Source: Allomuricauda sp.
GTDB taxonomy: Bacteria; Bacteroidota; Bacteroidia; Flavobacteriales; Flavobacteriaceae
Assembly (NCBI GenBank): GCA_048270465.1
Contig: JBLWSV010000003.1
Location: forward strand, 96,843 to 160,842
DNA: 64,000 bases
Direction: 5' to 3'
The notes under the pieces are model-generated. The model was not told where the DNA came from. It ran no database searches and saw only the letters and a program-made list of their open reading frames with translations. Positions 15,038 through 25,580 of this stretch are shown here, in pieces. Both the position numbers and the translations under genes were made by a program. Numbering within the stretch: the stretch's first letter is position 1; every line of letters begins with the position of its first letter.

Positions 15038-15535
15038 ATGACAGACCCATTTCCCAAAAGAGAATATTTTTCTGTAGCCGATGCCACCAAAAAATTGGAG
15101 CATTATTGTGCCTACCAAGAGCGATGTCATTATGAAGTGGCAGAAAAACTTAAGGGGATGAACATGATCCCCGAAGCGATAGACCAAATTGTGGGACACC
15201 TCATCCAAGAAAACTACTTGAACGAGGAACGGTTCGCCAAAAGTTTTGCAAGGGGAAAGTTCAATATTAAAAAATGGGGGAAAAATAGAATTGTCAGGGA
15301 ATTGAAGCTACGCCAGATATCGGTGTTCAACATCAAGAGCGCGCTCAAGGAAATTGACAATGCCCAATATGTACAGACCCTCGATGATCTTGCCAAAAAG
15401 AGACTCGCGCAGATCAGGGAGACCAATGTCCAAAAGAAAAAGAAAAAATTGGCAGATTACCTGCTGTACCGCGGTTGGGAAAGCCACTTGGTCTATGAAA
15501 AAATTACTGAACTTATTGCGGACAAAACCGTTTAG
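15038..15535 (+). CDS. recX: RecA regulator RecX
   Basis: YCAYQERC, YLNEERFAKSF, WGKNRIVREL, YLLYRGW. Confidence 0.9.
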   Translation: MTDPFPKREYFSVADATKKLEHYCAYQERCHYEVAEKLKGMNMIPEAIDQIVGHLIQENYLNEERFAKSFARGKFNIKKWGKNRIVRELKLRQISVFNIKSALKEIDNAQYVQTLDDLAKKRLAQIRETNVQKKKKKLADYLLYRGWESHLVYEKITELIADKTV

Positions 15536-16407
15536 GTCCACTTTTGCGTCATCACTTTTTCGGTGCGCAGAATGGCTTGCTCATTTTTCCAGTCAATCCA
15601 CTGTTGGCCTTTCAACTTCCGCATCAGGTTGTCAAAATGGCGCATAAAAAATATGTTGTAAACGGCCTGCCCAAAATTTTTGGGCTTTCTGGCTATGGCT
15701 CGCAAACTCATAGAAAAACCAGGTGTAATGTACTTCATGTAGTGCCAATACCCTTCGGGTATATAGAGTATGTTTCCGTGTTCCAATTGGGCAATGTGTC
15801 CCTTGGCATGTCGTAAGGCCGGCCATTTTTCAAGGTCGGGGTCATCAAAATCGATATCTTCCCTTGTAATCAAGGAATGTGGGATTTTATACAGGAATTT
15901 GGTCTCGGACTGCGCATACAGAATGCACTGTTTTTTTCCTTCAAAATGAAAATGGAAGATGTTGGCCAAATCGATATCGTAATGCATGAAAGTGTACGAA
16001 TCCTCTCCCCCAAAAAACAACATGGGCAGGCCTTTCATCAATCGTAAACCGAAATCGGGATATTGGAAGTCCTTTTGGAGTTCGGGCACTTCCTTTAAAA
16101 TGTTCCAAAGAAAAATACGGTACCTTGTTGGGCCACTCTTCAACAGATCCACATAATCCGTCATCCTCATTTTGGCATGGGGCTGGTTGAATCCTTCATC
16201 ATGCTTGACCGGACGATCATCATACAAAGGTACTTCCTTGTCGCCCGCAATTTTCTTCATGTAGTCGAGACTCCATTTGGAATAAGCTGGCCAATCCTCA
16301 ATAAACCGCTCGATCACTACAGGCTTTTGGGGCTTGAAATATTTTTGGATAAACTCCTTTCTGGTAAGAGTTGTCTCCCGAGGTATCTGTTCAAGATTCA
16401 GCTTCAA
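15532..16407 (-). CDS. JmjC/cupin-like Fe(II)/2-oxoglutarate-dependent oxygenase
   Basis: TTG start; KPVVIERFIEDWPA, HYD (HxD), GKK, LYIPEGYWH (distal His). Confidence 0.85.
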   Translation of the reverse strand: MKLNLEQIPRETTLTRKEFIQKYFKPQKPVVIERFIEDWPAYSKWSLDYMKKIAGDKEVPLYDDRPVKHDEGFNQPHAKMRMTDYVDLLKSGPTRYRIFLWNILKEVPELQKDFQYPDFGLRLMKGLPMLFFGGEDSYTFMHYDIDLANIFHFHFEGKKQCILYAQSETKFLYKIPHSLITREDIDFDDPDLEKWPALRHAKGHIAQLEHGNILYIPEGYWHYMKYITPGFSMSLRAIARKPKNFGQAVYNIFFMRHFDNLMRKLKGQQWIDWKNEQAILRTEKVMTQKWT

Positions 16408-16465
16408 GATTTCAAGGAATTAGAAACCGCTAAATTACTAAAACGTTTTGAAATGGTTATGGGAG

Positions 16466-17566
16466 CTATCCCTTGGAGACCAATTTGCCTTTCTCCTTGG
16501 CCGCTTCATTTCTGTCGATCACATGTCCTGGTCTTGACCATTTTGGCTTTTCACCCATGGGCACATATTCGGAATCGTTTGCTTCAACAGTTTGGGGCTG
16601 CGGAGCCTTCACAAATGCTTTTTGTGGATTAAGTCCCAGTTGTTTGAACATTTCCATGTCCTCGTTTACATCGGGATTTGGCGTGGTAAGCAACTTATCC
16701 CCGGCAAAAATGGAGTTGGCTCCGGCAAAAAAGCACAATGCCTGCCCTTCCCTGCTCATGCCCGTCCTTCCAGCAGATAACCTCACCTGTGTCTGCGGCA
16801 TAACGATCCGGGTCGTGGCCACCATACGGATCATTTCCCAGATTTCCACCGGCTTCTGATCTTCCATCGGTGTGCCTTCCACTGCGACCAATGCATTGAT
16901 GGGGACAGATTCCGGCTGTGGGTTCAATGTGGACAGTGCCACCAACATTCCTGCACGGTCTTCCACCGATTCCCCCATCCCGATGATTCCCCCACTGCAA
17001 ACGGTAACATTCGTTTTTCGAACATTCTCTATGGTCTGGAGACGATCTTCGTACCCTCTTGTGGAGATTACTTCCTTATAATATTCCTCAGAAGTGTCCA
17101 AGTTGTGGTTATAGGCATACAATCCTGCTTCGGCCAGTCTTTTGGCTTGGTTTTCGGTGACCATACCCAGGGTGCAGCACACTTCCATGTCCAATTTATT
17201 GATGGTACGTACCATTTCCAATACCTGATCAAACTCGGGGCCGTCCTTAACGTTTCGCCATGCAGCACCCATACAGACCCTTGAGCTACCCGAGGCCTTG
17301 GCGCGGAGCGCTTGGGCTTTTACCTGCTGAACGGACATCAAGTCGTTCCCTTCAACATTGGTGTGGTACCGTGCTGCCTGTGGGCAATAGCCACAATCTT
17401 CGGGACAGCCCCCTGTTTTTATGGAAAGCAAGGTAGATACCTGCACGGTATTGGGGTCGTGATATGCCCTGTGCACAGTGGCCGCTTCATACAGCAGTTC
17501 CATTAAGGGCTTGTTATATATATCCAGAATTTCTTCCTTGGTCCAGTTATGTCTTGTACTGTTCAT
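16466..17566 (-). CDS. bioB: Biotin synthase
   Basis: Radical-SAM [54 protein letters not shown]. Confidence 0.97.
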
Positions 17567-17585
17567 ATTTCTTGGGTCTCTGTTT

Positions 17586-17593
17586 CAAAAGTA
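17586..17593 (-). promoter_or_regulatory. -7 element, internal promoter for bioB
   Basis: TACTTTTG on minus strand, 19 nt before the bioB ATG. Confidence 0.55.
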
Positions 17594-17630
17594 AGGCATT
17601 CCATCCATAAAATGGAATAGAGGTCTTTTT

Positions 17631-18818
17631 TTAAGAATCTGGTCTTCTGTTCAGCAATATACTAACGGCATTCCCCCCAAAACCCACAGCATTGACCAAC
17701 ACTTTGTTTATTTGGTTTGACGGGGCTTGGTTCCCAAAAAAGGGAGAGGCAATGTAGTGTTGTTTTTGGAGCATCATCACGGCCATTTCCAAGCTCAACA
17801 GTCCCGAAGCACCAAAGGTGTGTCCCACTTTCCATTTGTTGGTGGTCAAAAATGGATGGTCATTGCCAAATACTTTTTTTATGGCATTGTATTCCGATAC
17901 ATCTCCTTTTACGGTCCCAGGAGCGTGCATTACCACGGCATCGACTTCTGATGGGTCCAAACGGCCCAAGGCCATTCTCATGGCATCTTGAAAACATTGG
18001 GCATCGGTGCTTATGGAAACGCTGTGTTGCAAGGGTTCGGTGGCATAACCCACCCCTCCCACAAATGCGAAGGCATTTGTTTTGGATCCTTTTTCCAAAC
18101 AGGCCAATCCTGCGGCCTCTCCCAACACCATGGTATTCTGTGTTTTATGAAGGTCCATGGCTCTGCAGGGGTACTCATCTCTCGACTGCGCTGGAAATGA
18201 CACCTTGGAATAAACTTTTAAGGCCTGCATTTGGGCAATAGTGAACGGAGTCAAGGGGGCTTCGCTGCCTCCAACCAAAAATTTGTCCGCCATGCCGCTC
18301 TGTATCCAGGCTACGGCATTCAAAACCGCATGAAGTGCCGTGGAGCAGGTAATGGAATGTGAGATTTCAGGTCCTTTGGATTTTAAATCGTGGGCCACCC
18401 ACGATGAAATGTTGCCCAAAGTGGTCGAAGGTGATGATAAGGTAGAAGATTTTCTCGCTGTCAAAAACTCTTGGTGGTATTTTTCAAAAAGAGAGGTTGC
18501 ACCCCGTGACGAACCGATATTGATGCCAAAATGGGAACCTTCGTCCCAACTGGCCCTTTCTACCGCACTTCTTGCAGCATAGATGGCAAACAATACCGAG
18601 TCATCCAAAAACCTGTACTTGGCATCGGATTGTCGCAGATCCTCAATTTCCTTTTTTATTGCTTTGGGCAATTGGGACGCCCAAACCGATTGTTCCCCAA
18701 TCCTGACATCTTCCAAAAAATGTTCATCGCTCTGGTAGGATTGCCAGATTTCATCAAAGGTTTGTCCCATTGACGAGATGGAGGTAATGGCCGTTATGGA
18801 AATGGGTTCTTTCAACAT
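17631..18818 (-). CDS. Beta-ketoacyl-ACP synthase, FabF/FabB type
   Basis: Cys-His-His triad: SITCST, MHAPGT, KVGHTFGASG; C-terminal NAVGFGG; 9 nt after the bioA stop. Confidence 0.88.
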   Translation of the reverse strand: MLKEPISITAITSISSMGQTFDEIWQSYQSDEHFLEDVRIGEQSVWASQLPKAIKKEIEDLRQSDAKYRFLDDSVLFAIYAARSAVERASWDEGSHFGINIGSSRGATSLFEKYHQEFLTARKSSTLSSPSTTLGNISSWVAHDLKSKGPEISHSITCSTALHAVLNAVAWIQSGMADKFLVGGSEAPLTPFTIAQMQALKVYSKVSFPAQSRDEYPCRAMDLHKTQNTMVLGEAAGLACLEKGSKTNAFAFVGGVGYATEPLQHSVSISTDAQCFQDAMRMALGRLDPSEVDAVVMHAPGTVKGDVSEYNAIKKVFGNDHPFLTTNKWKVGHTFGASGLLSLEMAVMMLQKQHYIASPFFGNQAPSNQINKVLVNAVGFGGNAVSILLNRRPDS

Positions 18819-18827
18819 ATTCTAACC

Positions 18828-20096
18828 TTAGACCAATTCAAATGAAGAACGTATGGCACCATAAATCTGTTGCATTTGGTCTTTTGTGGTCACATAAGGG
18901 GCCAAAATATAAATGGTGTTCCCCAATGGCCTTAAAAATACACCTTGGTCCATGAAATGGTTGAAGAGCTTGTTGCGTAAATTGCCGTAACGTTCCATTT
19001 TCACATCCAAATCCAAGGCATAAATAATGCCCAATTGCCGTGTTTTGGCCACCTTAGGGTGGTTTTTGATCTGCTTGTCAAACTCTTGGTGCCAACCTGT
19101 TATGTCCTCTATTTTCTGCTGTATTTCTTGGGTCTGGAGCAGTTCCAGGGCGGCCAAGGCCGCGGTACAGGCCAATGGGTTGGCCGTGTAGGTATGCCCG
19201 TGAAAGAGTCCTTTTGCCACATCATCGCTATAAAAAGCCAAGTACACTTCATCCGTGCAAGTGGTGAGGCCCATGGGCACCAGGCCCGCGGTCAATGCTT
19301 TGGACAGGCACATGATATCAGGCTTCGTCTGTAAATAATCGGATGCGAAGTACTTTCCTGTTTTGCCAAAGCCCGTCATCACCTCATCGGCAATGGTGAG
19401 CACCTTGTGTTTTTGCAGTAATGCCAAAATTTTATCAAGACCATCAGCATCATGCATCTTCATGGCGGCCGCACCTTGAACCAAAGGCTCATAAATAAAG
19501 CCAGCAATATTGTTCTGCTTCAAACGCTTTGCCAGTTGATTTAGGATATCACCGATATTATCTTTTGTGGGCACTGGAATCCGTTCCACTTCAATAAAGA
19601 AATCCTCAAACGGGCCATTGTACACCGAAAGACCAGAAACGGACATGGCACCAAAGGTGTCCCCATGGAAACCTTCTTCAAAGGCCAACAAAACATTGCG
19701 CTTTTCCCCCTTGTTGAAATGGTACTGCAAAGCCATTTTGATCCCAATCTCAGTAGCTGTGGATCCATTGTCCGAAAAAAACAGTTTTTCTTGGTTGTCG
19801 GGCAATATTTTAATGAGCTCTTCGGAAAGCCTCACCGCAGGTTCGTGGGTAAACCCGCTAAAAACCACTTGGTCCAGACGTTGCATCTGATCGGCCACCT
19901 TTTCCAAAATATAGGGGTTGCAATGTCCGTACATACAGGTGTACCATGACGAGATTCCGTCCACATAAGTCTTTCCTTCCTCATCGATGAGCAATGCCCC
20001 CTTGGCGCTGGCAATGGCCAGCATTTCGGGACTGGTCTTGTGCTGGGTCAATGGGTGCCAAAGGTGTTTTTTGTCCCTTTCCGATAATTTTTCCAC
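18828..20096 (-). CDS. bioA: Adenosylmethionine-8-amino-7-oxononanoate transaminase
   Basis: WHPLTQH, DGISSWY, FHGDTFG, IADEVMTGFGKTG, SKALTAG, HGHTYTAN; start set at GTG 20096 because a TAAATTTG element (20128-20121) overlaps the ORF-track TTG. Confidence 0.95.
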   Translation of the reverse strand: MEKLSERDKKHLWHPLTQHKTSPEMLAIASAKGALLIDEEGKTYVDGISSWYTCMYGHCNPYILEKVADQMQRLDQVVFSGFTHEPAVRLSEELIKILPDNQEKLFFSDNGSTATEIGIKMALQYHFNKGEKRNVLLAFEEGFHGDTFGAMSVSGLSVYNGPFEDFFIEVERIPVPTKDNIGDILNQLAKRLKQNNIAGFIYEPLVQGAAAMKMHDADGLDKILALLQKHKVLTIADEVMTGFGKTGKYFASDYLQTKPDIMCLSKALTAGLVPMGLTTCTDEVYLAFYSDDVAKGLFHGHTYTANPLACTAALAALELLQTQEIQQKIEDITGWHQEFDKQIKNHPKVAKTRQLGIIYALDLDVKMERYGNLRNKLFNHFMDQGVFLRPLGNTIYILAPYVTTKDQMQQIYGAIRSSFELV

Positions 20097-20152
20097 TACT
20101 AAGGAGTCTCTCAAAACATTCAAATTTATCTATATTGCAAAGATGATAATTA

Positions 20153-21652
20153 ATGCCCAAAAAGGGCAATAGGACCGTGCTTAAAAAAATCTGCCATCCC
20201 GATTACAAGAACCTTGACTGGAAGACCGTCTTTTTGGTTTTGTTCATAGTCGCCTTCTTCATCCGTTTTCCATTCTTTTTTCGGGACTATATCGATCGGG
20301 ATGAAAGCACCTTTATCCTTTTGGGTCAATCTTGGGTGGATGGCCATCTGCCCTATACCCAGCTTTGGGACCTTAAACCACCTATCACCTTTCTCTATTT
20401 TGCCCTTATCATCAAATTTTTTGGCAAGAGTTTTTTTGCCATTCGGCTGTTCGGCACTCTGATGGTCGCCCTCACTGCACTATTTACATACGGTATGGCC
20501 ACAAAGCTCACGAGCAAAAAAGTGGCATTTTGGACCGCTATGTTCTGTATCTTTTTCCAGAGTCTGTTCGGCAGCCTGCAAGGGGTTATGTCCGAGCACA
20601 TCTGTACCTTCTTTTTTGCTGTGGGATTATATCTTTTGTTCTGCAAAGAAAGATGGTACTACTTTTTGGTCTCCGGGTTTCTTTTGGGGCTTTCCATTAT
20701 GTCCAAGTTAAACATGGCCTATCCTGCTTTCACTCTGGGCATTTATTTTTTGTGGGAAGGGTTCAGGACCAAACAGCCTGGGAGAACCCTTAAAAATTTG
20801 ATTTTTCTCGGTACCGGGATTATTTTCACTGTGTTGCTTACTGCTTTGCCCTACTATCTGGAGGGAAATATGCCGATTTGGTGGCAATCCATCTTTGAGG
20901 CCCCACTTGCCTATTCCGAGGGCAAGTTCCATTCCCCGTTAAGGACTTTGCCCTATGTAGGGATTGTTTCAGGGCTTCTGATTATAGGATTTACCACAAA
21001 ATTGATAGATCGAAGCTCAAGGTATATCCAAATTTTAACGGTTGTGCTTATTGGGGTTTTATTGTCCTTTGTGCAGGCCGGAAAGGTGAACGGGCATTAT
21101 CTGATCCAACTCTATCCTTTTATTTTGATTCTTTCGGGGATGGCCGTGGCCAAACTTCCAATTATCAAGAAGAAATATAACCTCTTGGTCATGACACTAC
21201 TGATCCTGATTCCCATGGAATCCTATTTGGAATATGCCAATATTGTGACCAATAAATTGGAAAAAGGATCTTTTTATAATGGCGAAGGCATTGATGTCCC
21301 CAGATACATTACCGATAATAAGCTATCCACGGAAAACATCTTCTTCACCGAATACCACATTGGATATTGGGTTTTGGGGGTAAACCCGCCTACCAAAGCG
21401 GCCACACACCCCAGCAACATTACCCGTGAAGAGTTGTTCCTTTATATGGACAACCCAAGAAAAACCGGTATTGAGGAATTAAAGTACATCATGGAAGTTA
21501 TCCAACCAAAAACTTTGGTGGCCAGAAGCGGCAAAAAAATATTTGATAAAAAATTGGTGGAATACAACACCTATATTGATGCTTATTTGGCCAAACACTA
21601 TCAACTGAAGACTACGGTGGGAAGAGGCCTTATTTACCAACGATTGGAATAA
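20153..21652 (+). CDS. GT-C fold membrane glycosyltransferase (ArnT/PMT-like)
   Basis: 499 aa, many TM segments; DRDESTF and WDLKPP loop motifs; start may be GTG 20177. Confidence 0.78.
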   Translation: MPKKGNRTVLKKICHPDYKNLDWKTVFLVLFIVAFFIRFPFFFRDYIDRDESTFILLGQSWVDGHLPYTQLWDLKPPITFLYFALIIKFFGKSFFAIRLFGTLMVALTALFTYGMATKLTSKKVAFWTAMFCIFFQSLFGSLQGVMSEHICTFFFAVGLYLLFCKERWYYFLVSGFLLGLSIMSKLNMAYPAFTLGIYFLWEGFRTKQPGRTLKNLIFLGTGIIFTVLLTALPYYLEGNMPIWWQSIFEAPLAYSEGKFHSPLRTLPYVGIVSGLLIIGFTTKLIDRSSRYIQILTVVLIGVLLSFVQAGKVNGHYLIQLYPFILILSGMAVAKLPIIKKKYNLLVMTLLILIPMESYLEYANIVTNKLEKGSFYNGEGIDVPRYITDNKLSTENIFFTEYHIGYWVLGVNPPTKAATHPSNITREELFLYMDNPRKTGIEELKYIMEVIQPKTLVARSGKKIFDKKLVEYNTYIDAYLAKHYQLKTTVGRGLIYQRLE

Positions 21653-21831
21653 CTCCCCAGTGCTGGATCAGCTCTTCTTGAAAACCGTTAAATAATATAT
21701 CTGAATTTTTCCCGTTAAAGCTCTGGGTTACCTTGGTTGCCCGCAGCATATTTATCGCCCCATTACTTTTTGCCAAACAGGTTTCCTCTCCAGTTTTTGG
21801 GGTTGTCCAATACCAAATCTTATATGCTGCG

Positions 21832-23496
21832 ATGGTCAAAAACCTGCTCACTCTTGTTTGTAAGGGTAAATCTTTTCCTGTGTTATCCCTTCTTTTTTTA
21901 TTTCTGTATTCCATTTCTCTATTTCTTAACTTGGGAGTTGCCCCTTTTTACAATGAAGAGCCCAGAAGGTCCATAATCGCTATGGAAATGTTGTTCAACA
22001 AAAACTTTGTGGTAACCACGCTTTTTAATGACGTGTTTTATGACCATCCTCCTTTGTGGAACATTGTTTTGGCTGGAAGTTACTGGTTATTCGGCACCGA
22101 CACCGAATTTGCCTTCAGGTTTCCCTCTGCCCTATCACTGCTATTGACCGGGGCCGTGGTCTATTTCATGGGGAAAAAATATGTGGGACATATCTTCGGA
22201 ATCATTTCGGCTTTTTTGTACCTGATTTCGGCAGACCTCTATTTTTTCTTTTCCAATACCGCTGAGATCGACATCTTTTTCTCTCTTCTGGTCTTATTGA
22301 GTGTTTTGTGCATCTTTCATTTCCATGAACAGAAAAGGTTCACGCCGCTCTTTCTGGGCGCCTATTTTTTCTGTTTTTTGGGATTCCTTACCAAAGGGGT
22401 GGTGGCCCTTGTTTTTTTGGGCATATCGTTTCTGGTTTTCTTCTTTTTTAAAAAGGAGCTTAAAAAATTGTTCCTGCCCGTTCACTTTGTTTGCGCTTTA
22501 CTATGCGTGGGAGGTATTGCAATGTTTTTCTACATCTATGCACAGTATGATGATGCCTATGCCTACGTGGAAGGAATGTGGCGCATAACAAGGAACAAAT
22601 CCTTCTTGGACGAACAAAACAATGCCTTTTTCTCCCACTTTTTATGGTTTCCCCTTAATATGCTCGGGAATCTGTTCCCGGCCACTTTGTTGGTCTTTTT
22701 TCTCTTCAAAAAATCTGTGATTGCCAAGATCAAAGAGAATGGGTACCTGATGTTCTTGTTCCTGGTTTTCGTTTCAAACTTTGTTGTTTACTGGATTTCC
22801 CCAGGGGCCAAAGCACGTTACACCTATATGTTCTATCCTATGCTCATCAGTATTTTGACCTTTGCCTTTTTGGTTTATGGGAACAAAGAAGGATGGAAAA
22901 CGAAGCTTTTGTTCAGTGTCTTTTCCCTGATTACATTATTACTGGGGATAGGTTGTCTCATTCTTCCTTTTGTTGACTATTTTGAAGTAATAAAAGGTCT
23001 GGATTATATTGCCCTGTTCTTTGGAATCTCTGCACTGTGCCTATTCCTTCTGCAACAAAGCACAAGTGACTTTTGGAGCAGATTGATAATGGGTTTAATG
23101 GGCATTGTTATGGTCAAATTGGTGTTTTCACTCACCATTTACCCATTAAAGCAACAGAAAAGCTCCTCGTCCACCTTCAAAGATCACGCTAAAAACATTT
23201 TGGACATCACCAAAGATTCGCCCATTTATCTATATTCAAAGACAGGTTCCTTTGGCCACCATAACATTGGAAAGTTTTACACCACTGGGGCCTATTTGGA
23301 ACTTTTGGGAAATCAATCCCTCAAAAAAACTTCTTCCCATGAAGAGAGCGGTTACTATATTCTCCACAAGGAAGAATTAAAAAATCAAAAGGTCTTATAT
23401 ACCATTGATAACCGCACGAGTTGTCTTGTGCTTATTAAAAATGAAGAAGATCATTACGGAACTTGGTCGCATAATCCTGAACCATCTGTTTATTAA
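21832..23496 (+). CDS. ArnT-family (GT83-like) membrane glycosyltransferase
   Basis: Likely start ATG 21832; EEPRRSIIAMEM, YDHPPLW, AFRFPSAL, LTKG motifs; polytopic. Confidence 0.8.
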   Translation: MVKNLLTLVCKGKSFPVLSLLFLFLYSISLFLNLGVAPFYNEEPRRSIIAMEMLFNKNFVVTTLFNDVFYDHPPLWNIVLAGSYWLFGTDTEFAFRFPSALSLLLTGAVVYFMGKKYVGHIFGIISAFLYLISADLYFFFSNTAEIDIFFSLLVLLSVLCIFHFHEQKRFTPLFLGAYFFCFLGFLTKGVVALVFLGISFLVFFFFKKELKKLFLPVHFVCALLCVGGIAMFFYIYAQYDDAYAYVEGMWRITRNKSFLDEQNNAFFSHFLWFPLNMLGNLFPATLLVFFLFKKSVIAKIKENGYLMFLFLVFVSNFVVYWISPGAKARYTYMFYPMLISILTFAFLVYGNKEGWKTKLLFSVFSLITLLLGIGCLILPFVDYFEVIKGLDYIALFFGISALCLFLLQQSTSDFWSRLIMGLMGIVMVKLVFSLTIYPLKQQKSSSSTFKDHAKNILDITKDSPIYLYSKTGSFGHHNIGKFYTTGAYLELLGNQSLKKTSSHEESGYYILHKEELKNQKVLYTIDNRTSCLVLIKNEEDHYGTWSHNPEPSVY

Positions 23497-24049
23497 AACA
23501 AGGTTCCTCATCAATCCGACCCAAATATTTTGTCTTGGATTTCCTCAAGATGATTTCCTCTGTGGTCGGATGTTCGTCCCCACTGAAAATGATGCCGATT
23601 TCCACGTTCTTTTGTTGCAATTTTTCAATGGTCAACAAGGTGTGGTTGATGCTTCCCAGATAATGCCGGGACACCACGATTACTTTGTAATCCGGTTGGA
23701 TCAGGTCAAAAATGGTATCGGTATCGTTCAAGGGAACCAACAGGCCTCCGGCCCCCTCGACCACCAAATGATTATCGGTTTTTGGGGGCACAATTTTCTC
23801 CAGATCAATGACAATTCCGTCAATGGCCGCTGCTGCATGGGGGCTCATGGGGGTTTTCAGGGCATAACTGTTCGGATGGATGACCGTTTTGCTGTTGGAA
23901 ATAAGGGATTCGACCTTATGGCTGTCAGAGTTTTCGAGATCTCCTGCCTGGACTGGTTTCCAATAATCGGCTTGGAGCGATTCCACAACAATGGCCGAAG
24001 CCACTGTTTTTCCAACCTCTGTTGATATTCCTGTGACGAATAGTTTCAT
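23435..24049 (-). CDS. bioD: Dethiobiotin synthetase
   Basis: Start ATG 24049 (ATGA overlap); LFVTGISTEVGKT P-loop, YWKPVQAG, VEGAGGLLVPLN, LGSINHTLL. Confidence 0.96.
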   Translation of the reverse strand: MKLFVTGISTEVGKTVASAIVVESLQADYWKPVQAGDLENSDSHKVESLISNSKTVIHPNSYALKTPMSPHAAAAIDGIVIDLEKIVPPKTDNHLVVEGAGGLLVPLNDTDTIFDLIQPDYKVIVVSRHYLGSINHTLLTIEKLQQKNVEIGIIFSGDEHPTTEEIILRKSKTKYLGRIDEEPCFNKQMVQDYATKFRNDLLHF

Positions 24050-24432
24050 CGGGACGGTTTTGTGATGAAATTGCACTGCATGCACTGATATTTTTTTGGC
24101 TCAAAAAAGGGAAATAGTTTGTAGAAAATATTTTTTCTGGAATAATAGATTTCCGATTTCGCCTCCTTACAGTTAGGGCAGACCACCGGATGGCCAAAAT
24201 CGTCCGTGGCATAGTTCCTGACCTCATCATAAATTTCTTTGGCCAGCTCCTTGTCCGTTGAGTACACTTGAAGTTTTACCCCGCCAATGGCAGTACTGAT
24301 CAAAGGATCGGAGTTTATGGTGGCTTCATCCCTTAGAAAAACAGTGATTCCCTCTGCTTCCAATTTTCCCTTGATGATGAGGGCATCGGCAGGAAACTCA
24401 AATGTGCCCAAAGTGTGAAATTCCTGTTCCAT
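24046..24432 (-). CDS. DUF2007-like protein with C-terminal zinc ribbon
   Basis: 128 aa; IIKGKLEAEGI..GGVKLQV N-domain; CPNC...CMQC; TAATG overlap with bioF, ATGA overlap with bioD. Confidence 0.78.
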   Translation of the reverse strand: MEQEFHTLGTFEFPADALIIKGKLEAEGITVFLRDEATINSDPLISTAIGGVKLQVYSTDKELAKEIYDEVRNYATDDFGHPVVCPNCKEAKSEIYYSRKNIFYKLFPFFEPKKYQCMQCNFITKPSR

Positions 24433-25580
24433 TACGCTATCTCGTTTTTCAATAAGGACAAAATTCGTGATATTTCCTCACTTGTGTTATAGGCATGCAA
24501 ACAAAAACGCAACCGTTCCTGTCCTTCTTTTACGGTTGGGGACAAAATGGGCTTTACGTCAAACCCTTCCTTTTGCAATTCTTTGGCCACGGCCTTCACT
24601 TTGGCATTCCCGGGGACCAACATGCATTGTATGGCGGAATGGCTTTGGATGAACCTGTCCGAAAGCTGCAATCGTTCCATTTCATGCTTAAAATGGGCAA
24701 TGTTACCGTGAAGTTGTTCGGCAATGTGCGCTCCGTTCCCCTTTAAAAAATCGTAGGCAGCCAAAATTGAGGCCACTGCATGGGGTGGAAGTGCCGTGGT
24801 ATAGATAAAGCTCCTCGCAAAATTGATCAAATAGTCCGTGAGCGGCCTGCTGCCCAAAATAGCGGCACCATGGCATCCCATGGCTTTGCCAAAGGTAATG
24901 ATCCGGGCAAAAACTTCCGTTTCCAGACCCAGCTCGGATATCAAATCGGTTCCCTTTCCAAAAACGCCCGTTGCATGGGCTTCATCCACCACCAAAAAGC
25001 AGTTGTTCTCCTTGCATAGCTTGGCCATTCCCCAGAGGTCGGGGGAATCGCCGTCCATGGAGAAAACGGATTCGGTCACAATATAGATTTCTGTTGAGCC
25101 GTCCATATTTCGACTGCGCTCAATATGACGGCTTAAATCCTCAATATCATTATGGGCAAACTTGTAGCTTTTGGCATGTCCCATTTGCATGCCATCCCGA
25201 ATGCTGGCATGGACCAGTTCATCAAAAAGCACTATGTCGCCCCGTTGTGGGACCGAGGAGAAAAACCCGATGTTGGCATCATATCCGGAATTGAACACCA
25301 GAGCTGTATCGGCATGGTGGTGTGCTGCCAAAAATTCCTCCAGTTTTGGGTAAAGTGCATGGTTCCCGGAAAGCAATCTTGATCCCGAGGCGCCATTTTT
25401 AAGTTCCATTCCCTCCAAAAACTTGTGGGCCGCTCGGACCAGTTCCCCATTTCGGGCCAAACCCAAATAGTCATTGGATGAAAAATCGACAAGATTGCCC
25501 ACGGACTGCAAGCTCCTTATGGCATTTTTCTGCAAGCGTTCGGCCAGTTTGGCCTGTAACTTTCCGGGCGTCCTCTCCAT
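24432..25580 (-). CDS. bioF: 8-amino-7-oxononanoate synthase
   Basis: FSSNDYLGL, GSRLLSG, FNSGYDAN, DELVHAS, ESVFSMDGD, VDEAHATG, TFGKAMG, RLRFCLH. Confidence 0.95.
   Translation of the reverse strand: MERTPGKLQAKLAERLQKNAIRSLQSVGNLVDFSSNDYLGLARNGELVRAAHKFLEGMELKNGASGSRLLSGNHALYPKLEEFLAAHHHADTALVFNSGYDANIGFFSSVPQRGDIVLFDELVHASIRDGMQMGHAKSYKFAHNDIEDLSRHIERSRNMDGSTEIYIVTESVFSMDGDSPDLWGMAKLCKENNCFLVVDEAHATGVFGKGTDLISELGLETEVFARIITFGKAMGCHGAAILGSRPLTDYLINFARSFIYTTALPPHAVASILAAYDFLKGNGAHIAEQLHGNIAHFKHEMERLQLSDRFIQSHSAIQCMLVPGNAKVKAVAKELQKEGFDVKPILSPTVKEGQERLRFCLHAYNTSEEISRILSLLKNEIA

Follow-up and report, generated by a model that had tools for sequence, protein, structure and literature searches.

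We analyzed a 64,000-nucleotide window of an Allomuricauda sp. genome (contig JBLWSV010000003.1, positions 96,843 to 160,842) in which a 3-ketoacyl synthase gene is embedded in a cluster of biotin synthesis genes. The ketosynthase (KS, protein P0001) is encoded on the minus strand (17631..18818) and is a 395-residue divergent condensing enzyme of the FabF fold, as assigned by Pfam, NCBIfam and an AlphaFold2 (AF2) model. The neighboring genes lie on the same strand. Directly upstream is bioA (18828..20123), which encodes adenosylmethionine-8-amino-7-oxononanoate transaminase (TIGR00508, 535 bits versus a cut-off of 405), and downstream is bioB (16466..17566), which encodes biotin synthase (TIGR00433, 405 bits versus a cut-off of 225). 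A spacer of 9 nucleotides (nt) separates the TAA stop codon of bioA from the KS ATG start codon and 64 nt separate the KS TAA stop codon from the bioB ATG. A scan of the coding strand of the 64-nt spacer found no terminator-like site. A preliminary description of this DNA had placed the KS between bioA and bioB and only 9 nt beyond the bioA stop codon; the open reading frame (ORF) coordinates confirm this arrangement and the flanking genes are true bioA and bioB genes.

The KS is distinct from the housekeeping FabF, of which it is a divergent paralogue. Pfam detects both ketoacyl-synt domains (N and C) rather than ACP_syn_III. Against the fabF model TIGR03150 the protein scored only 141.4 bits (the cut-off is 493.75) and it passed no curated NCBIfam cut-off, although a weak match to the model of the cispentacin acyltransferase AmcF was seen. 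The NCBI name of the family is generic ('beta-ketoacyl synthase N-terminal-like domain-containing protein'). The true FabF of the genome scored 597.6 bits with TIGR03150 and its gene adjoins that of the only acyl carrier protein (ACP) of the genome, at a distance of about 170 kb along the same contig, in keeping with the earlier remark that no ACP or other fab gene is nearby. Hence, the KS is not the only FabF of the genome, a possibility that the preliminary description had raised, because a true FabF at 598 bits is encoded elsewhere. The KS is about 25% identical to the FabF proteins of the Protein Data Bank. The AF2 model (predicted local distance difference test score, pLDDT, 88.4; predicted template modeling score, pTM, 0.90) superposes on FabF, KasA and FabB structures with TM scores of 0.82-0.86 at 20-25% sequence identity, the best matches being FabF structures at TM 0.86.

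The catalytic residues are intact. All of the motifs quoted in the preliminary description were found: HSITCST containing Cys158 (codon 18345..18347), MHAPGT containing His298 (17925-17927), GHTFG containing His333 (17820-17822) and NAVGFGG. The catalytic Lys328 (17835-17837) is present as well. Conservation was scored over 53 genome copies plus 141 cluster representatives, and these four catalytic residues together with the GFGG loop and its gate residue Phe380 (17679-17681) were invariant in the 141 representatives. The family also has residues that are invariant, or nearly so, and absent from FabF. These are Ser103-Ser104-Arg105-Gly-Ala107-Thr108 (codons 18495..18512, located by alignment), where FabF has A/S-G-I-G-G-L, and Glu112. 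Further family-specific residues are Ser129-Pro-x-Thr132-Thr133, Ser155, Thr157, Phe192-Thr193, Gln196-Met197 and His-Ala-Pro300-Gly-Thr302. Arg105, Glu112 and Ser155 are found in all 141 representatives, and Ser129 and Gln196 in 140. P0001 carries the full signature (S-S-R-G-A-T, Glu112, S-P-x-T-T, Ser155, Gln196 and H-A-P-G-T). The N-terminal acyl pocket, previously noted as divergent, is indeed so: residues 103-108, 129-134, 153-157 and 192-197 are unlike those of FabF and show conservation across the family.

In E. coli FabF (EcFabF), Ile108 and Phe202 constitute a 'back gate' located at about C7-C8 of the bound acyl chain (PMC9006962). Alignment places Arg105 of the KS (codon 18504-18506) at the Ile108 position and Met197 at the Phe202 position, and thus the hydrophobic back gate has been lost. 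Arginine is present at this position in 141 of 141 representatives and in 53 of 53 genome copies, and is the basic pocket residue that the preliminary description had predicted. A guanidinium group at the Ile108 site of a polar pocket is what would be expected of an enzyme that binds a C5 diacid by its free carboxylate, and Arg105 would meet that carboxylate. Note that the glutaryl methyl ester equals a C7 acid in length (PMC9006962). A second set of EcFabF residues, Thr305 and Thr307, are conserved phosphopantetheine contacts (PMC9006962). In the alignment Thr305 is replaced by Pro300 in the KS and Thr307 is retained as Thr302.

Four pimelate routes are given in recent papers, BioC-BioH, BioI-BioW, BioZ and BioE (PMC12704756, PMC12915131), and the BioE papers of December 2025 name only these. 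The genome, which is 100% complete in 28 contigs, was searched in its entirety for the known pimelate modules. No BioC match above the cut-off was found, the two best matches being MenG/UbiE and PrmC, and BioG, BioH and BioW were likewise absent from the genome. The genome encodes no cytochrome P450 and hence no BioI. Nor was a BioE homologue detected in the genome using a BioE orthologue recovered from a relative, a query validated by its iron ligands E26, E53 and H56 plus R31 and K32 (PMC12704756). Three FabH-like genes are present, none in a biotin gene context. The third and divergent gene (G000 C17:6642-7694; L073 6636-7694, minus strand) lies between a gene for an FkbM-family methyltransferase and gcvP, and its product scored 205 bits against the cut-off of 249 on PRK09352, the generic 3-ketoacyl-ACP synthase III (KAS III) model. 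This gene was considered as a hidden BioZ and provisionally set aside owing to its distance from the biotin genes and its sub-threshold KAS III score. The genome has a single ACP, and the cluster in the window contains no dedicated ACP, 3-oxoacyl reductase or FabZ-like gene. The KS is the only candidate in the biotin operon for making the seven-carbon pimelate arm.

The distribution of the KS was determined in 200 genomes of Flavobacteriaceae, one per genus. The KS was found in 117 genomes (50-66% identity) and bioB in 123, with both present in 116. By hand tally the two genes were adjacent in 68 of the 116 and within 5.5 kb in 36 more (104 genomes in all), a further six had the genes within 20 kb, and in the remaining six they were distant or on other contigs. 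Among 29 loci that were fetched, bioA and/or bioB lay within 1.5 kb of the KS gene in 26. The one genome having the KS only is assembled in 610 contigs, and its bioA adjoins the KS gene. The KS was missing from the 76 genera that lack biotin genes. Seven genomes have bioB without the KS. In three of these bioB is at a contig end of a fragmented assembly. A fourth (G005) has the gene order bioB-bioA-bioF-BioG-methyltransferase-bioD, the methyltransferase being BioC-like, and a fifth (G195) has bioE-bioF-bioD-bioB-bioA with a BioE orthologue upstream of bioF. In the last two (G126 and G182) bioB is accompanied only by a TonB receptor gene and a Cupin_8 gene, and bioA is absent from the whole genome. 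Searches of all 200 genomes found BioG solely in G005 and BioE solely in G195. Every genome of the sample with a complete late pathway holds exactly one of the KS, BioC/BioG or BioE. Three irregular KS genes were also encountered: a copy split in two pieces beside bioB (G106 C1:2657906-2659252), an additional, incomplete copy containing a stop codon (G175 C21:31347-31868), and a KS within a 525-residue frame that is extended N-terminally by about 120 residues (L063 844-2421), the last in a high-GC Bacteroidota genome.

In a broader sample of 400 genomes of the phylum, the KS was present in 20 of the 28 genomes of its own family and in only four outside it (35-48% identity), one of them from another class. 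All four of these KS genes adjoin bioA or bioF. Among 1.84 billion representatives, 388 clusters matched at E ≤ 1e-30, and the best 150 of the 388 (37-63% identity) all belong to the KS family. Four contexts of metagenomic KS genes at 37-39% identity were read, one of which is a bare bioB-bioF-bioD-bioA-KS operon and a second a bioF-bioD-bioA-KS operon. Where labels are given, the distant members come from Flavobacteriales or Sphingobacteriia metagenome-assembled genomes, and the Atlas clusters are Bacteroidota. As far as these searches show, the family is restricted to Bacteroidota. A literature search for a flavobacterial biotin ketosynthase found no paper on the family.

These data lead us to propose that the KS is probably a dedicated, stand-alone ketosynthase of the elongating (Cys-His-His) type that acts in synthesis of the pimelate arm of biotin by condensing a primer having a free omega-carboxyl group with malonyl-ACP. 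In the predicted reaction, Cys158 would be loaded with a short acyl primer bearing a free omega-carboxylate. Glutaryl (C5) is the likeliest such primer, and malonyl (C3) may also serve in a preceding round. Arg105 and a ring of Ser/Thr/Gln residues, which stand where FabF has its hydrophobic Ile108-Phe202 back gate, would hold the distal carboxylate. The usual decarboxylative Claisen condensation using malonyl-ACP would then give 3-oxopimeloyl-ACP, which the housekeeping FabG, FabZ and FabI enzymes, using the single housekeeping ACP, would convert to pimeloyl-ACP. BioF, BioA, BioD and BioB would turn this product into biotin, and neither the methyl ester disguise of BioC/BioH nor a dedicated ACP would be necessary. 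The preliminary description had suggested that a KS of the FabF/FabB clade does a BioZ-like job on a dicarboxylic primer. This proposal is consistent with every test run. What we infer is that the KS condenses dicarboxylic primers, which primer it takes and whether ACP or CoA carries it, and that the housekeeping enzymes for fatty acid synthesis of type II (FAS II) take part. We are more confident of a pimelate-arm role for the KS than of its primer. Somewhat less firmly, we favor the broader view that one FabF-derived KS with an arginine back gate suffices to divert FAS II to pimeloyl-ACP with no methyl ester, dedicated ACP or oxidative cleavage, and that this is the predominant route of the Flavobacteriaceae, which arose independently of BioZ and of the Desulfovibrio system.

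Several observations weigh against this proposal. The pocket and dimer loops (residues 101-140) are the least confident part of the AF2 model (pLDDT 60-77), which is a monomer model, and the geometry by which Arg105 would meet the carboxylate is a prediction from the alignment. Given the Thr305 to Pro300 change, substrate delivery in the KS may differ from that of FabF. The sampled genomes are related to one another and thus are not independent samples, so that the distribution of the KS, BioC/BioG and BioE is a pattern rather than a statistic. In six of the 116 genomes the KS gene is far from bioB or on another contig, and two of the four metagenomic KS genes lie on short contigs that carry no biotin genes.

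The remaining biotin genes of the window are on the same strand as the KS cluster but four kilobases away. These are bioF (24432..25580), which encodes 8-amino-7-oxononanoate synthase, the enzyme that consumes the pimeloyl thioester (TIGR00858, 343 bits, the best family), and bioD (23435..24085), which encodes dethiobiotin synthase. Reading of the ORFs places a 128-residue zinc-ribbon ORF (24046..24432, minus strand) between them. A homologue of this ORF (41% identity) is found in the bioB-only genome G126 (L040 5031-5444) beside an alpha/beta hydrolase gene and away from the biotin genes. Two plus-strand PMT_2/GT-C glycosyltransferase genes (20153-23496) divide the bioF to bioD group from bioA-KS-bioB, and in many relatives the distance from the KS gene to bioB ranges from 1 to 20 kb. 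Inspection by eye of the regions upstream of bioA and bioF revealed no shared operator. A sigma-70 promoter scan gave fewer matches than expected from shuffled sequence, the sigma-70 model being ill-suited to Bacteroidota promoters. Short Logan contigs 95-99% alike span the bioA/KS and KS/bioB junctions. These come from soil metatranscriptome libraries and related strains, and DNA carry-over is possible; they are weak RNA evidence for co-transcription. Contigs 95-99% identical to positions 15400-20300 occur in libraries labeled as compost and soil transcriptomes, whereas the locus is of a marine flavobacterial type. Perhaps this organism, or one closely related to it, is more widely distributed than the names of its relatives imply, or the library labels may be loose.

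Downstream of bioB, Pfam identifies a Cupin_8/JmjC-like gene (15532..16407, minus strand), and this gene is the basis of one of four other explanations of the KS. In such a scheme the KS and the Cupin_8/JmjC oxygenase would act together in an oxidative or cleavage route like that of BioI or BioE, and the KS would not be a primer-selecting condensing enzyme. The gene follows bioB both here and in many relatives. However, in G126 and G182 (L040 11076-11927; L041 10919-11770), which have neither the KS nor bioA, it directly follows bioB, and neither the bioBFDA-KS nor the bioFDA-KS operon contains it. The JmjC gene was therefore rejected as a partner of the KS. Given its retention with bioB in these two genomes, it seems to be tied to BioB, or else to the salvage of dethiobiotin, and not to the making of pimelate. 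Moreover, the condensing triad, lysine and phenylalanine gate are invariant, and we consider an oxidative role very improbable. A similarly small chance attaches to a non-condensing active site that either decarboxylates malonyl-ACP or transfers pimeloyl or glutaryl groups between CoA and ACP. The loss of the phosphopantetheine-binding Thr305 would suit such an activity, and KS-like decarboxylases and acyltransferases exist, of which AmcF gave the weak model match noted above. Known decarboxylating KS variants lose the cysteine, however, whereas this family has retained the cysteine, both histidines, the lysine and the GFGG phenylalanine gate without exception. Furthermore, neither reaction would yield the C7 diacid, which the genome has no other means of making.

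The alternative to which we give most weight, though it too is unlikely, retains the methyl ester. The KS would be a specialized elongator of the methyl ester of malonyl- or glutaryl-ACP in a cryptic pathway resembling BioC/BioH, the methyltransferase and esterase of which belong to unrecognized families and are encoded elsewhere. BioH replacements are highly diverse (PMC9909488), and among the class I methyltransferases and alpha/beta hydrolases of the genome many weakly match the BioC and BioH models. Yet the two best BioC-like matches are clearly MenG/UbiE and PrmC, and nothing else is encoded within the five-gene bioB-bioF-bioD-bioA-KS operon. The ester route of E. coli runs without a special KS, and an invariant arginine in a polar pocket fits a free carboxylate better than it does a methyl ester. 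Rather less probable is that the KS is a paralogue of lipid or fatty acid synthesis, for instance one making a special short or polar acyl chain, which is co-regulated with the biotin genes only because acetyl-CoA carboxylase requires biotin. The FabF fold and intact triad are those of such an enzyme, and some members of the family are encoded away from biotin genes. Against this, the KS accompanies only a complete late biotin pathway: it is missing from the genera lacking biotin genes, from the bioB-only genomes and from those with BioC/BioG or BioE. The linkage to biotin genes holds down to 35% identity and across classes, and without the KS these genomes would be left with no source of pimelate. 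Synthesis of the pimelate arm by condensation of a free dicarboxylic primer thus remains the explanation we prefer.

Bacteria differ in how they make the pimelate moiety, and knowledge of this part of biotin biosynthesis is still incomplete. If our proposal is correct, the KS would close this gap for most biotin-prototrophic Flavobacteriaceae, a major marine and soil group, by a further and biochemically undescribed route to the biotin precursor, and predictions of vitamin auxotrophy would be corrected. Biotin synthesis would have recruited a ketosynthase independently for a third time, and the KS would be a natural re-engineering of the FabF back gate to accept a charged substrate. The gene would by itself also serve as a tool for the production of odd-chain dicarboxylic thioesters or the overproduction of biotin. 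Genetic work has already revealed a FabF-like ketosynthase of biotin synthesis in Desulfovibrio. New here are the direct comparison with that enzyme and the one-to-one complementary distribution of the KS with BioG and BioE over 200 genera. The Thr305 to proline change is also new, as is the use of the bioB-only genomes to dissociate the JmjC gene from the KS.

Among known enzymes the KS resembles FabF (KAS II, TIGR03150) in fold (TM 0.86), in its Cys-His-His-Lys set and in its GFGG front gate. It differs in having Arg105 and Met197 in place of the Ile108 and Phe202 back gate, Pro300 in place of Thr305, a polar pocket and only 20-25% identity. The functionally closest characterized enzyme is BioZ, a KAS III (FabH-like) 3-ketoacyl-ACP synthase encoded in alpha-proteobacterial bio operons (PMC7645780, PMC8024396, PMC12625853). 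Both are ketosynthases encoded with biotin genes in genomes that lack BioC and BioH, and they probably share the task of condensing a free dicarboxylic primer (glutaryl) with malonyl-ACP, FAS II then completing pimeloyl-ACP synthesis without methyl esters. The KS is not itself a BioZ. BioZ belongs to the initiating Cys-His-Asn KAS III clade and uses a CoA primer, whereas the KS has ketoacyl-synt domains and a Cys-His-His triad, best matches FabF structures and belongs to the elongating FabF/FabB clade. It also has its own predicted solution to carboxylate binding, Arg105 at the back gate. BioI and BioE demonstrate that oxidative cleavage can supply pimelate (PMC12704756). Precedents for pimelate synthesis free of methyl esters are BioZ (PMC7645780) and Desulfovibrio (PMC10102598).

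The preliminary description knew of BioZ as the only ketosynthase in biotin synthesis, which is incomplete, because the FabF-like DVU2563 protein is genetically required in Desulfovibrio (PMC10102598). In that bacterium the bio cluster contains DVU2563 together with dedicated ACP, reductase and FabZ-like genes, which random bar code transposon-site sequencing (RB-TnSeq) showed to be needed for growth without biotin (PMC10102598; the cluster is attributed there to Rodionov 2004 and Lin & Cronan 2011). DVU2563 and the KS are both FabF-fold Cys-His-His enzymes encoded in bio clusters of organisms that lack BioC and BioH. The Desulfovibrio enzyme comes with an ACP, a reductase and dehydratases of its own, whereas the flavobacterial KS has no such companions and its genome has one ACP. 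Desulfovibrionaceae genomes were reached by use of a 16S probe sequence and the DVU2563 orthologue (P0290) was located in Nitratidesulfovibrio sp. HK-II (L193 1495-2865, minus strand), where it is flanked by ACP-like, short-chain dehydrogenase/reductase (SDR) and bioF genes. P0290 is 23% identical to P0001 (pairwise E 1e-6) and lacks the SSRGAT signature but retains HGTGT. Its N-terminal 170 residues are unalignable. The protein has arginine residues in D-S-R-L-S (FabF: E-A-x-x-T) and in L-R-W-L-P, which may be a different, convergent placing of a basic residue in the pocket. In an IQ-TREE phylogeny, which is unrooted, has long branches (P0290 included) and contains a single Desulfovibrio biotin KS, the 24 Bacteroidota KS proteins formed their own clade on a long branch, and P0290 grouped with FabF proteins and other Desulfovibrio KS paralogues, both splits having 100% SH-aLRT support. 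By these sequence comparisons, the flavobacterial and Desulfovibrio FabF-type biotin ketosynthases look like independent recruitments.

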